From an uncultured archaeon (GTDB taxonomy: Archaea > Nanobdellota > Nanobdellia > Pacearchaeales > GW2011-AR1): DNA of 64,000 nucleotides. The position numbers and the translations under genes were made by a program. The notes beneath the pieces are model-generated. The model was not told the DNA's origin, made no database searches, and was given only the letters and a program-made list of their open reading frames with translations. Positions 45,262-48,554 of this stretch are shown piece by piece. The stretch spans positions 43,624-107,623 of the forward strand of contig CAIPOI010000006.1 in the NCBI GenBank assembly GCA_903866625.1, given 5' to 3'. Position 1 is the stretch's first letter; each line of letters opens with the position of its first letter.

Positions 45262-46283
45262 TGTTTTTTATGCTCCAGGAACCATTTAATTAAAGAAGTA
45301 TTAGTAATCCAGGTATTAAGCATATCAAATCCGAGGCCGATTAAAAGAATGACAAACATTTGATTTAAAACTGTTCCAAATGGATGAACAAACATTAAAG
45401 CTACTGCAATCGAAGCTATTGCAGTTAGTGTCATAGTCATTCCAGTCTTAAATGCTCCGAATATTTCGTGATTTATAGAAGTATCTTTCCTTTTTAGAAC
45501 TCTTGTCGTTAGAAGAATATCTGTATCCACAGAATAACCGATAAGCATAAGGAAAGCTACGATACCTGCACCAGAAATAGTCAAACCAATTAAGTCAATA
45601 ACTGCAAGAGTCATTACAATATCTGCAAAAGCACAAAACATTACTGCAAAACTTGGAATAGAATTTTTTATGTATAAAGAGACTAAAATTATTATAAAGA
45701 CTAAAAGAAATATGGAAGAAAGTAAGATGTTTAGTTTAAAGAATAGTTTTCCCATAAAAATTCCAAACAAAATATTTAAGAGTATTGCAAGAAGTTTTAT
45801 CTTCCATTTATCAGAGAATATTACGAAAACAACTGCAGCCATCCAAAAGAAAGCTATTAAGACAGTTACTCCTAATTGTTTATAGAAATTTTCACTTAAG
45901 CTTGAACCTATAAATTGAATGTTTGAATTTGAATCAGTAAGAGAGTAACCTAAATATTTTTCTAGAATTGGTTTTATTACTTCTGGTTTTTCAGAGGTCA
46001 TAATTATAACTTGATTTTGTTTTCCGTTCGAGTCCAATAAATATCTGGTTTCTATATCTACAACTTGTGATGAAAGAGTGGTTTGAATTTCATTTGAAGA
46101 AATATTAGTAAAAAGAGTTATAGTTGTTCCACCGGTTAAAGATAAATCTCTATGAACAAAGTCATGATTAGTCATATAAAAATTTGTGATGATTACAATT
46201 GAAAGAATCAAAATTAGTGCAGGTAAGATAAGTGCCTTCTTATAATGCTTGTTATATATTCCGCTTAGTTTTTCTGAAACCAT
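45258..46283 (-). CDS. secF: Protein translocase subunit SecF
   Basis: DLSLTGG, LMLIGYSVDTDILL and TG..MT motifs. Confidence 0.93.
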   Translation of the reverse strand: MVSEKLSGIYNKHYKKALILPALILILSIVIITNFYMTNHDFVHRDLSLTGGTTITLFTNISSNEIQTTLSSQVVDIETRYLLDSNGKQNQVIIMTSEKPEVIKPILEKYLGYSLTDSNSNIQFIGSSLSENFYKQLGVTVLIAFFWMAAVVFVIFSDKWKIKLLAILLNILFGIFMGKLFFKLNILLSSIFLLVFIIILVSLYIKNSIPSFAVMFCAFADIVMTLAVIDLIGLTISGAGIVAFLMLIGYSVDTDILLTTRVLKRKDTSINHEIFGAFKTGMTMTLTAIASIAVALMFVHPFGTVLNQMFVILLIGLGFDMLNTWITNTSLIKWFLEHKKQ

Positions 46284-46293
46284 TTTTGTTTTA

Positions 46294-46406
46294 TGCGCTA
46301 GCGGGGAATCGAACCCCGATCAATTGGTCATTTCACCTTGAGCCCATACTTATATAAGAGCTCGTGGTTTGGAAACCAATAGTACTAGCCGTTATACTAC
46401 CAGCGC
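46294..46406 (-). tRNA. tRNA-Gly(TCC) with a 41-nt canonical intron (46329-46369)
   Basis: Cloverleaf GCGCTGG/CTAGCGC, anticodon stem ATTGG/CCAAT, TTCGATT T-loop; bulge-helix-bulge TTTC/GAAA with CAA and TGA bulges at 37/38. Confidence 0.93.
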
Positions 46407-46434
46407 AGGTAATAATAATGGGTTTTATTGTCTT

Positions 46435-46776
46435 TTAAAGATTGCTATCCTTTAATTTATAGTGGAATTTTCTATGGCAGTTAGCACATAAGACTTCACA
46501 TTTCTTAATTTCTTTTTGGACTCTCTGGATAGAGTAACCTGCATGGACTTTTGTATTGATTCCAAAAAGTTTATCTCTCTTGTTTTTATGATGAAAGTCG
46601 AGGGTTGCTGGATGATTCTCTCCACATTTAATACATCTAAGGGTTTTCTTATATTCTTTAAACCATTTTTTAATTTCTTTTTTTCTTCGAGATATATGTG
46701 CTTTTTCAGATTCTCTGTTAAGAGAATACCAATTTCTCCTATAGGCTCTTCTTTTATCTAAATCTTTATAAGGCAT
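46435..46776 (-). CDS. Small HNH-type endonuclease with zinc knuckles
   Basis: CIKCG..LDFHH...KCEVLCANCH..H; basic N-terminus. Confidence 0.8.
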   Translation of the reverse strand: MPYKDLDKRRAYRRNWYSLNRESEKAHISRRKKEIKKWFKEYKKTLRCIKCGENHPATLDFHHKNKRDKLFGINTKVHAGYSIQRVQKEIKKCEVLCANCHRKFHYKLKDSNL

Positions 46777-46831
46777 AAACTTATAGGGTTTCCAACTATT
46801 AAAATTATTGTAATCCCTTAAGAATAACTAA

Positions 46832-46908
46832 CGCGCCCGAAAGGATTTGAACCTTTGACCCTCTCCTTAGGATGGAGATGCTCTGATTCCGGGCTGAGCT
46901 ACGGGCGC
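46832..46908 (-). tRNA. tRNA-Arg(CCT)
   Basis: GCGCCCG/CGGGCGC acceptor, TCTCC-ATCCTAA-GGAGA anticodon arm, AAAGG-TTCAAAT-CCTTT T arm. Confidence 0.92.
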
Positions 46909-46946
46909 AACAAAATATGCGAGTCTTACTTAGTCTCATGATTCTC

Positions 46947-47139
46947 ATGCGAGAGATAGCTCAGAAAATAAAATTTTCTGATACTTCAATTCTCTACTTT
47001 CGAATTGAAGTGATTCGAACCTATCGAATCCTATCTATGCGAGAGATAGCTCAGAAAATAAAATTTTCTGATACTTCAATTCTCTACTTTCGAATTGAAG
47101 TGATTCGAACCTATCGAATCCTATCTATGCGAGAGATAG
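46947..47139. repeat. Two identical 90-bp tandem repeats plus a 13-bp partial copy overlapping the tRNA-Leu 3' end
   Basis: 46947-47036 equals 47037-47126; 47127-47139 (ATGCGAGAGATAG) begins a third copy and is the tRNA 3' end. Confidence 0.95.
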
Positions 47140-47210
47140 GATTCGAACCTATGAAGGCATAAGCCAAGAGATTTTGAGTCTCTCCCGTTTGACCGCTTCG
47201 GTACCCTCGC
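47128..47210 (-). tRNA. tRNA-Leu(CAA)
   Basis: GCGAGGG/TCTCGC-A acceptor, AGAGA-CTCAAAA-TCTCT anticodon arm, long variable arm, ATAGG-TTCGAAT-CCTAT T arm. Confidence 0.94.
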
Positions 47211-47233
47211 ATAAAAAAACTAATAATAGAGTG

Positions 47234-47251
47234 TATAAAAAGCTTTATAAA
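47234..47251. promoter_or_regulatory. Back-to-back BRE/TATA promoters for tRNA-Leu (-) and the leader-leuA transcript (+)
   Basis: TATAAAAAGCTTTATAAA: TTTATAAA at 47244-47251 lies ~22 nt before ATG 47273; TTTTTATA on the minus strand lies ~24 nt before the tRNA 5' end. Confidence 0.65.
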
Positions 47252-47272
47252 TTTAAAATTCTCAGAGATATT

Positions 47273-47332
47273 ATGAAACCTGGAGTAGAAGCTAATTGTT
47301 CAAGAATTCTATTAGCTCTGCTTATTTTATAG
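47273..47332 (+). CDS. Putative Leu-rich leader peptide (19 aa) of leuA
   Basis: MKPGVEANCSRILLALLIL*; five Leu in the last seven codons (CTA, TTA, CTG, CTT, TTA); double stop TAG TAA. Confidence 0.7.
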   Translation: MKPGVEANCSRILLALLIL

Positions 47333-47365
47333 TAAGGTTTCTCTAAATTTATTTCTTGGAGAAAC
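47275..47365 (+). promoter_or_regulatory. Putative translational attenuator (SD-sequestering hairpin and competing stem)
   Basis: GTTTCTCTAA(47337-46)/TTGGAGAAAC(47356-65) covers the GGAG site; GAAACCT(47275-81) can instead pair with AGGTTTC(47335-41). Confidence 0.65.
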
Positions 47366-47366
47366 A

Positions 47367-48554
47367 ATGACAAACCCTAATTATAATTCTGCTTCTGAAA
47401 GGAAAATTATCATTCTAGACACGACTCTTAGAGATGGAGATCAAAGTGCTCTTGGAACAATGTATCCTAGTGAAAAAATGAAAGTTGCAAAACACCTTGA
47501 GAAAATGGGAGTTGAACGAATTGAAGCAGGTTTTGCTGCAGCAAAAGGTAATTATGAATTTATGTCCGGAGTTGCTCAAACATTAAAAAATTCGTGGCTT
47601 TCTGGTCTTTCTAGATGCGTAAATAGAGATACAGAAAGAACTTACGAAGCTTATAAGAACTATCAAAAAAGAATGATCCATCTTTTTTTGCCTACTTCTG
47701 AAATTCAAGTAAGTGCTAAAATGAAAAAAACTGATGACGAACTTATAAAAATAACTAGAAGTTCTGTGACTTATGCAAGGAGTTTCTTTGATAAAGTTGA
47801 GTTTACTGCAGAAGATGCTGTTAGAAGCAATTGGGATTTTTTGAAAAGAGTTTATTTTGAAGCCATAAATTCTGGAGCTACCATAATTAATGTAGCCGAT
47901 ACTGTTGGCTATGCTGAAACAGAAGAGTTTGGAAGGCTTGTCAAAAATGTTGCGGGTTATGTAAAAATAATAAACCCCAATGTAGAAATAAGTATTCACT
48001 GTCATAATGATTTAGGATTGGCTGTTGCAAATACCATTGCAGGAATTAAAAACGGAGCACAGCAAGTAGAGGTAACTATCAATGGTCTTGGCGAAAGAGC
48101 AGGTAATTGCAGCCTTGAACAGATAGTTGCTTTTAGTAAGGTTCATCCAGAATCTTTCTCAACCAATGTTTTATCAGGGGAAATTTACAAAGCTTCCAAA
48201 ATGGTTAGTAGATTTACTGGAGTAAGAAATGACTCTGCTCCTGTTGTTGGAAAATCTGCTTTTGCCCATAAATCTGGAATACATCAACATGGAGTCATAA
48301 ATAATAAAGAGTCTTATGAAGTTTTAAGAGCAGAAGATTTCGGAAGAAAAAGTGAAATAGTTATAGGCCCTCATTCAGGCTATCATGGAGTTATTGCAAA
48401 AGCAAGAGAGCTCGGATTTGAAATTAGTCAAGAACAAGCAGCACTAATTTTAGATGTAGTTTCAGAAAAAGTTCAAAGAGAAGAGCAAAAAAGATTTGAT
48501 GATGAAGATATCAGAAAAATACTTATGGAAAAGGTTTTAGCTCTAGCAGTTTAG
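47367..48554 (+). CDS. leuA: 2-isopropylmalate synthase, short form without the C-terminal regulatory domain (DRE-TIM family)
   Basis: DTTLRDG.Q, IEAGF, EDA.R, DTVG, HCHNDLGLAVAN, INGLGERAGN and AFAH.SGIHQ.G motifs; 395 aa. Confidence 0.8.
   Translation: MTNPNYNSASERKIIILDTTLRDGDQSALGTMYPSEKMKVAKHLEKMGVERIEAGFAAAKGNYEFMSGVAQTLKNSWLSGLSRCVNRDTERTYEAYKNYQKRMIHLFLPTSEIQVSAKMKKTDDELIKITRSSVTYARSFFDKVEFTAEDAVRSNWDFLKRVYFEAINSGATIINVADTVGYAETEEFGRLVKNVAGYVKIINPNVEISIHCHNDLGLAVANTIAGIKNGAQQVEVTINGLGERAGNCSLEQIVAFSKVHPESFSTNVLSGEIYKASKMVSRFTGVRNDSAPVVGKSAFAHKSGIHQHGVINNKESYEVLRAEDFGRKSEIVIGPHSGYHGVIAKARELGFEISQEQAALILDVVSEKVQREEQKRFDDEDIRKILMEKVLALAV

Follow-up and report, generated by a model that had tools for sequence, protein, structure and literature searches.

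REP/BIME repeats and the PATEs derived from IS200/IS605 elements, which are moved by Y1/HUH enzymes, are short, non-coding and multi-copy within one lineage; they carry a hairpin at each end and lie 3' of a short word without duplication of the target. Integrative elements of tRNA 3' ends and casposons leave the tRNA intact, with its 3' end on both sides of the insert, and accrete in tandem at one tRNA. The classic mark of tRNA-gene integration is a set of direct tRNA 3'-end repeats flanking the insert, with arrays growing tRNA-proximally; an integrase element carries one fixed tRNA copy, and the casposon repeat measures 14-15 bp. The double-hairpin elements and hairpin repeats of fungal, sponge and algal mitochondria are described, in the portions of that literature available to us, as two adjacent hairpins of tens of nucleotides in AT-rich compact genomes. 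To our knowledge, they are inferred to be mobile and no enzyme is known for them, and we know of no reported rule that ties them to tRNA T-loops. Archaeal bulge-helix-bulge (BHB) tRNA introns can lie inside T-arm sequence. Finally, the accessible part of a census of MITEs (PMC11602168) places a Woesearchaea genome among the archaea richest in these elements and detects them by terminal inverted repeats and target duplications.

The window analysed here, a stretch of 64,000 nucleotides, belongs to an archaeal genome of 725,599 bases in 8 contigs (89% complete, G+C ~32%), whose nearest named relatives are Woesearchaeota and Pacearchaeota MAGs (Woesearchaeota-type, 0.73 Mb). An earlier note made from the sequence had reported two identical 90-bp units directly 3' of the tRNA-Leu(CAA) gene. 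The unit sequence is exactly as first read, and Tandem Repeats Finder (TRF) returned a single array at 46947-47139 with a period of 90, 2.1 copies and 100% matches. The locus comprises the following features, listed in the direction of the tRNA strand:

47128-47210 (ARAGORN ends 47127-47211), minus strand: intact tRNA-Leu(CAA) (ARAGORN; Rfam tRNA, 56.1 bits)
47037-47126, minus strand: unit 1, adjoining tRNA-Leu(CAA) (sequence; TRF; fold; covariance model R1, 84.7 bits)
47126-47114, minus strand: unit 1, inverted copy of tRNA nt 55-67 (sequence)
47113-47102, minus strand: unit 1, direct copy of tRNA nt 50-61 (sequence)
47101-47050, minus strand: unit 1, double hairpin E, 52 nt (sequence)
47049-47037, minus strand: unit 1, copy of tRNA nt 62-73 plus one T (sequence)
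46947-47036, minus strand: unit 2, identical to unit 1 (sequence; TRF; covariance model R1, 84.7 bits)
47036-47024, minus strand: unit 2, inverted copy (sequence)
47023-47012, minus strand: unit 2, direct T-arm copy (sequence)
47011-46983, minus strand: unit 2, first hairpin of E, hp1 (sequence)
46981-46961, minus strand: unit 2, second hairpin of E, hp2 (sequence)
46959-46947, minus strand: unit 2, copy of the tRNA 3' end (sequence)
46917-46946, minus strand: 23-nt filler, then a 7-nt CTCGCAT copy of the tRNA-Leu 3' end (sequence)
46832-46908 (ARAGORN ends 46831-46909), minus strand: tRNA-Arg(CCT) (ARAGORN, Rfam)
46435-46776, minus strand: 113-aa open reading frame with a CxxC...HH...CxxCH pattern, HNH-like by eye (ORF list)
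46294-46406, minus strand: tRNA-Trp with a 39-nt intron (ARAGORN, Rfam)

The sequences copied in both units are the T-loop and 3' strand of tRNA-Leu(CAA). The anatomy given in the earlier note, in which the T-arm and 3' acceptor strand are split by a 52-nt double hairpin and preceded by an inverted copy, was correctly read, and the additional CTCGCAT remnant is found at 46917-46923, where it had been placed. By analogy with arrays in relatives, the filler and this remnant (46917-46946) look like an older, decayed third cassette. Folded as RNA, the 90-nt unit is predicted to form a closing stem plus three hairpins (-31.2 kcal/mol, z -5.3, 0/200 shuffles as good), and the same structure is predicted for DNA (-22.5 kcal/mol, z -7.8). 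The four-way junction proposed at first reading is thus predicted for both nucleic acids, with energies below those of the shuffled sequences.

A thermodynamic fold of the whole trailer predicts competition with the T-arm of tRNA-Leu and contains the 13-bp fold-back on the real T-arm that had been suggested. At the RNA level such a modelled effect could be harmful or useful. The predicted competition is one argument for regarding the cassettes as functional parts of the tRNA primary transcript, that is, as trailer or spacer RNAs whose structure would guide or gate processing at the 3' end, shield the transcript, or control tRNA folding via T-arm competition. On the whole of the evidence, which is given below as it arises, we consider this reading unlikely. 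A further argument for it comes from the promoters. In the upstream regions of 35 tRNAs of this genome, the promoter reads CTTTAWAA and lies ~30 nt from the gene, and no box of this type was found within 60 nt upstream of tRNA-Arg(CCT), unlike most other tRNAs listed. tRNA-Arg(CCT) is therefore probably co-transcribed with tRNA-Leu, and both units between the two genes would probably be transcribed with them. Against it, an Rfam scan of 46200-47400 at E-value <=1 returned the three tRNAs only, plus two weak rows at chance level, and no family for E. We also considered hp2 as a promoter and dropped this idea given its poor match to the CTTTAWAA tRNA promoter of the genome. In the congeners (five genomes, G001-G005; the genome under study is G000 in locus labels, and all relatives are incomplete MAGs), the orthologues of tRNA-Arg(CCT) in G002 and G004 do have a CTTTAWAA box. 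In G002, G003 and G005, ~340-1000 nt of other DNA separates tRNA-Leu(CAA) from tRNA-Arg(CCT), while G000 has nothing but the cassettes in that interval.

Since short reads assemble poorly across perfect 90-bp repeats and the genome was binned from a metagenome, the tandem duplication could be an assembly artefact that is absent from the organism. In two lake-water metagenome runs, possibly the samples behind the assembly of the genome, the depth of the repeat unitig (46947-47049) was 11.5 against flanks of 5.15 and 6.15 (run X1) and 26.9 against flanks of 11.8 and 12.4 (run X2), contig depth being a rough measure only. A unitig across the junction between the units (47020-47066) was present in both runs. 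Taken together, a repeat depth of ~2x the flanks and the junction unitig in two runs fit about two copies. Comparable tandem units also occur at other tRNAs and in other genomes, and an artefact is highly improbable.

The insert is not confined to this locus. BLAST of one unit against the genome detected the 52-nt core at three further places, two of them directly behind tRNA-Cys and tRNA-Lys(TTT), where the flanks are those tRNAs' own T-arm and 3' end and not Leu sequence. Whether the insert accompanies other tRNA 3' ends was a question raised in the earlier note. E is a non-coding double hairpin of 52-57 nt in which hp1 is variable in sequence with a conserved stem and the arms of hp2 follow a conserved pattern, CAGAAAAT / ATTTTCTG. 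From four copies we built a covariance model, which found 10 copies in the genome itself (E-value <0.01) and matched 13/61 genomes, comprising this one, 11 of 36 others of the family and 1 of 24 from outside it. All five congeners carry E, with 5 to 25 matches each, and among the representatives of the family (one genome per genus) it is present in 26/151 at E-value <=1e-4. Many of the matches lie within 200 bases of a contig end. In a different lake study (run X3), a 53-nt contig has an identical hp1 and a different hp2, which means that variants of E circulate in other freshwater communities.

In an alignment of 45 matches, which was fitted to the model and thereby favours structure, 96% of stem cells are paired and 17/19 pairs change on both sides; none of 500 shuffles reaches this level, and controls slid along the sequence are 25-62% paired. 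Such compensatory changes keep the stems and would be expected of a functional trailer RNA. The same could be said of the mispairs on the modelled strand, G.T in 15 internal stem cells against A.C in 4, counted over 39 members of the family; the model's choice of strand itself favours G.U, so this ratio is biased. The first reading had described all stems as Watson-Crick, which is true of the copy in the window and not of the family, and its hint that a lack of G-U pairs points to function at the DNA level does not generalise, given those 15 G.T cells.

To assess the link with tRNA genes, we compared the flanks of E with the sequence around it. In 12 of the 39 testable matches, the 12-nt 3' flank is copied (<=1 mismatch) within 260 nt upstream, while the downstream control gave 2 matches, both tandem arrays. 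By eye, a tRNA link can be recognised in four more matches, which show 2-3 mismatches or an offset. Conversely, for 8 of the 35 tRNAs called by ARAGORN in the genome, the last 12 nt recur within 400 nt downstream (<=2 mismatches; 6 are exact), compared with 1 in the upstream control (<=2 mismatches; 0 exact). A ninth case lies behind the intron-bearing tRNA-Arg(TCG), which ARAGORN did not call; as the program misses some intron-bearing tRNAs, the count of 35 is a lower bound. Introns were seen in tRNA-Arg(TCG) (~45 nt; G000:C5:96650-97050, L120), in tRNA-Trp (39 nt) and in tRNA-Lys(TTT) of G004 (L092). The flanks of E match the particular tRNA concerned (Leu, Cys, Lys, Arg, His, Gln, Ile and Ser), and cassettes with the same hairpins stand behind at least 8 kinds of tRNA and about a dozen tRNA genes across genomes. 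A loose scan of the genome for the T-loop word returned noise only.

The tRNA-linked copies share one design. E lies at the T-loop end of a partial tRNA copy, and the 12-14 nt after it reproduce the 3' end of that tRNA. Behind tRNA genes it occurs only within such a partial copy of the 3' part of the neighbouring tRNA, which leaves the tRNA gene itself intact. Whatever the tRNA, the right-hand junction invariably falls at the T-loop end, at nt 60/61 or 61/62, and the word 5' of E is TTCRAAT(C) in the tRNA copies and CAGAAAT in a resident palindrome. The tail copy that ends the cassette corresponds to the tRNA's own nt 62-74 and measures 12-14 nt at most tRNA sites, compared with 25 nt at one locus (L136). 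The compact form of the cassette additionally contains the T-loop region in inverted orientation, which makes the unit a four-way junction; at one locus (L034) this inverted piece co-varies with the adjacent T-loop copy, which would again favour a functional trailer. Behind tRNA-Arg(TCG), on the other hand, the tail copy mismatches the 5' acceptor strand; the copies are therefore not used as acceptor strands, which counts against that reading. Among other known RNA architectures, a bulge-helix-bulge intron was rejected since perfect stems abut the junctions with 0-1 free nucleotides, and hammerhead and box C/D readings were likewise discarded once junctions and loops had been inspected.

A tRNA 3' end repeated directly at each border, together with the arrays, is also the picture left by integrases. 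The cassettes might accordingly be attL/attR and arm leftovers of integrase-type elements at tRNA 3' ends, deleted to ~100 bp, with the double hairpin as part of the attachment-site arm, and the genome does contain two tyrosine recombinase genes. Several observations oppose this reading. The same hairpins stand behind at least 8 kinds of tRNA, each with a copy of its own 3' end, and they separate the T-loop copy from the 3'-end copy, which an att site should have contiguous. E is also found in a non-tRNA palindrome without a repeat, and no integrase adjoins any cassette examined. We therefore judge an origin from attachment sites to be quite improbable.

A second type of cassette was identified in the genome behind tRNA-Gly(CCC), tRNA-Gln(CTG), tRNA-Glu(CTC) and tRNA-Glu(TTC). 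In order, its parts are a hairpin whose loop reads GA...GA, a conserved motif, a hairpin resembling hp2 and a copy of the tRNA end from nt 62. The motif also occurs behind tRNA-Gly(TCC) of another genus (G094), which indicates that it is part of the element rather than of the target. Its recurrence behind this unrelated tRNA ruled out our reading of the middle of the cassette as an inverted copy of the tRNA end. A hairpin directly behind tRNA-Glu, Gly, Gln and Lys has a loop that begins and ends with GA (GAGCAAAGCGAA, GAACAAAGTGAA) on a stem that changes. Between G000 and G005, the trailer hairpin of tRNA-Glu(CTC) keeps its GA...GA loop while the stem differs, another point in favour of function at the RNA level; the loop resembles RNA loops that bind proteins, such as the K-loop, and may be one of them.

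Arrays are found in other genomes as well. Behind tRNA-Gly(TCC) of G094 lie four cassettes of three kinds with five copies of the tRNA end, the largest array seen, and behind its tRNA-Arg(TCT) three 84-nt units, the third with a nested insert. In another MAG, tRNA-Ser(TGA) is followed by two 93-bp units whose repeat also includes 12 nt of trailer, and behind tRNA-Lys(TTT) of G001 two adjacent units carry different variants of the E hairpins.

We then compared orthologous loci, bearing in mind that the relatives are incomplete MAGs and absences of E in them are weak evidence. At tRNA-Leu(CAA), the double hairpin is present in 0/5 congeners, one of which carries another insert, 44 nt long, with a tail copy of 9 nt. 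At tRNA-Cys, E is absent from all three readable loci, and two further contigs break off 5 and 40 nt past the gene. By contrast, a cassette follows tRNA-Lys(TTT) in G000, G001, G003 and G005 but not in G004 (4/5 informative genomes), and tRNA-Gln(CTG) in 6/6 genomes. At the latter, E is inverted in four, direct in one and replaced by the second type in the genome under study; in the inverted copies, the hp1 loop is the reverse complement of the direct form, ruling out that E is always on the strand of the tRNA. The cassettes behind tRNA-Lys(TTT) and tRNA-Gln(CTG) across most of the genus speak for a functional trailer RNA. The lack of E behind the orthologous tRNA-Leu(CAA) and tRNA-Cys of the congeners, the different cassette types at orthologous loci, the two orientations of E relative to the tRNA and the copies at non-tRNA places speak against it. 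The earlier note had offered a tRNA-mimic RNA cut from the transcript as one of its three explanations, and this is weakened by the occurrence of E in both orientations and by its absence from most orthologous tRNAs. A miniature tRNA-targeting element fares best of the three, with a core that is multi-copy and patchy at orthologous loci. We infer that mobility causes this patchy distribution.

A further sign of mobility comes from one pair of loci. Upstream of a gene for a Toprim-domain protein, G005 has a plain hp2-type palindrome without E, whereas upstream of the orthologous gene in the genome under study E is nested right after the left arm of the palindrome, without a duplication. Palindromes of this kind are part of a recurring module that abuts the start codons of several opposite-strand genes and consists of a hairpin, an hp2-type palindrome (CAGAAAT..ATTTCTG) 26-28 nt from the ATG and a GTTGAACCCGAAGG-like motif. 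The module was seen in G000 at C6:12114-12169 (L010), C5:38953 (L012), C8:20779 (L014), C2:139482 (L015) and C2:70912 (L016) and in relatives at L026, L030, L040 and L042; this is the module that receives the double hairpin. What recurs here may be an operator or leader common to these genes, or else a larger repeat.

We lean, with some reserve, towards a non-autonomous mobile hairpin element aimed at T-loop DNA, combined with local tandem amplification. The 90-bp unit would then be a composite selfish DNA cassette in two layers. In the first layer, the mobile core E would insert just 3' of a T-loop-like word, which in T-arm DNA means nt 60/61 or 61/62. In the second, a process would leave a tail copy specific to the tRNA at the far end of each cassette. 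Arrays would grow as cassettes accumulate behind the tRNA, and the two identical Leu units may stem from a recent tandem duplication by slippage through the 13-nt repeats or from two successive insertions. Simple cut-and-paste of E cannot produce tRNA-specific direct and inverted copies, and at least one further step is therefore assumed. Furthermore, the inverted piece is not universal, being absent from the tRNA-Arg array of G094, and tRNA-Glu(TTC) of G005 has a partial copy with the inverted T-loop piece and without E, which suggests that the second layer may arise independently of E.

Candidate routes for the duplication of the tRNA end are a staggered cut of ~13 bp, template switching and recombination. 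A tail copy with a fixed structural start and a length of mostly 12-14 nt is the pattern expected from a staggered cut followed by gap filling. The direct and inverted T-arm pieces and the 25-nt repeat would need more than this, and the alternatives, which we do not rank, would be template switching on the T-arm palindrome and recombination involving a small excised copy. A further arrangement, which we consider unlikely, is an as yet unrecognised insertion system that uses T-loop DNA as a landmark: it would cut at nt 61/62 and ~13 bp downstream and add hairpin cassettes serially, rebuilding the tRNA 3' end. This would amount to an integron-like accretion array docked on a tRNA and run by a housekeeping or undescribed enzyme.

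It is also conceivable that no dedicated mobility is involved, and that template switching and slippage at the T-arm palindrome formed the units while the double hairpin spread only by ectopic recombination through the conserved T-loop. In quasi-palindrome mutagenesis, two template switches produce an arrangement of inverted plus direct copies, which is the arrangement in the units; several genomes have perfect tandem units, and no enzyme was found. The Leu unit nevertheless has no microhomology at the switch points, the junction is constant within one nucleotide across many tRNAs and the non-tRNA palindrome, and there are up to 25 copies of E per genome. We consider this reading quite improbable. 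The template-switch product proposed at first reading is retained in part, as it may account for the tRNA copies, inverted and direct, that surround the insert; the insert itself is beyond its reach.

To identify an enzyme that could act on such an element, we searched for families known to mobilise DNA. The genome (89% complete) yielded no Y1 transposase, Cas1 or serine recombinase, and searches for the TnpB and IS110 families gave no match in it or in the five congeners. In a scan of 41 genomes, a set to which this one belongs, Y1 transposase occurs in 11, and in only 2 of the 9 E-bearing ones, and serine recombinases are common in the order; neither tracks E. The searches with these five families in incomplete genomes thus yielded no candidate for a related autonomous element with a transposase. 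Of the two tyrosine recombinase genes, that with a 284-aa open frame is probably of the housekeeping Xer type, and the second lies on a 7-kb contig. With one strict pattern, no E was found on viral contigs. In G005 (C47, L077), a second tRNA-Arg/tRNA-Cys pair is immediately followed, behind tRNA-Cys, by a short stretch that resembles a serine recombinase and contains a stop codon, perhaps a leftover of an element with copies of tRNAs.

The 113-aa HNH-like open reading frame, which sits between tRNA-Arg(CCT) and tRNA-Trp, had been put forward as a protein that might bind or cut the unit. It has no Pfam match at E-value 0.01, and its relatives, in 8/61 genomes, do not track E (13/61). It was rejected as the mobilising enzyme on this distribution and is not part of the element. 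Its scattered relatives give it the look of a free-standing mobile nuclease gene.

Set against the described systems, the cassettes show a mixture of likenesses and differences. E resembles REP/BIME repeats and PATEs in being short, non-coding, multi-copy in one lineage and bounded by a hairpin at each end; at the Toprim-gene palindrome it likewise sits 3' of a short word without target duplication, and it is also positioned after TTCRAAT(C), with either orientation relative to the tRNA copy. It differs in its two mutually unlike hairpins, in the long tRNA-specific repeats of its tRNA-linked copies and in the distribution of Y1 transposases given above. Like tRNA-3'-end integrative elements and casposons, the cassettes leave the tRNA intact, with its 3' end on both sides of the insert, and accrete in tandem at one tRNA; their repeat of 12-14 nt is also close in length to that of casposons. 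In contrast to these elements, they measure 65-130 bp, have no genes and no terminal inverted repeats, use many different tRNAs in a genome in which no Cas1 was found, and have a repeat that starts at a fixed structural position, the T-loop end.

With the mitochondrial elements, as far as the available portions of the sources describe them, E shares the pair of adjacent hairpins, a size of tens of nucleotides and an AT-rich compact genome, and it differs from them in that they are organellar and unrelated in sequence. Similarly to an archaeal BHB intron, E is inserted inside the T-arm sequence of an archaeal tRNA-like stretch, but its host is a truncated copy and not a functional gene. Unlike MITEs, E in its simple form has neither terminal inverted repeats nor a target duplication: hp1 and hp2 are each self-complementary and are not inverted copies of each other. 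The cassettes thus lack defining features of each family compared. We found no description of them in the literature searched, in so far as its accessible parts extend; the supplements of PMC11602168 might list them as MITEs.

The cassettes have practical consequences. They break assemblies, as the many copies at contig ends indicate, and they create pseudo-tRNA fragments able to mislead annotation; they also mark strain-level variation that could serve for typing. For the organisms themselves, genomes of ~0.7 Mb have almost no spare DNA, yet about a quarter of the tRNA genes here trail one or more cassettes. If the cassettes are functional, they would represent a new class of tRNA trailer RNA. 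If they are mobile, they would point to an undescribed enzyme, and to selfish DNA that uses the most conserved word of a tRNA gene as a landing site without killing the gene.
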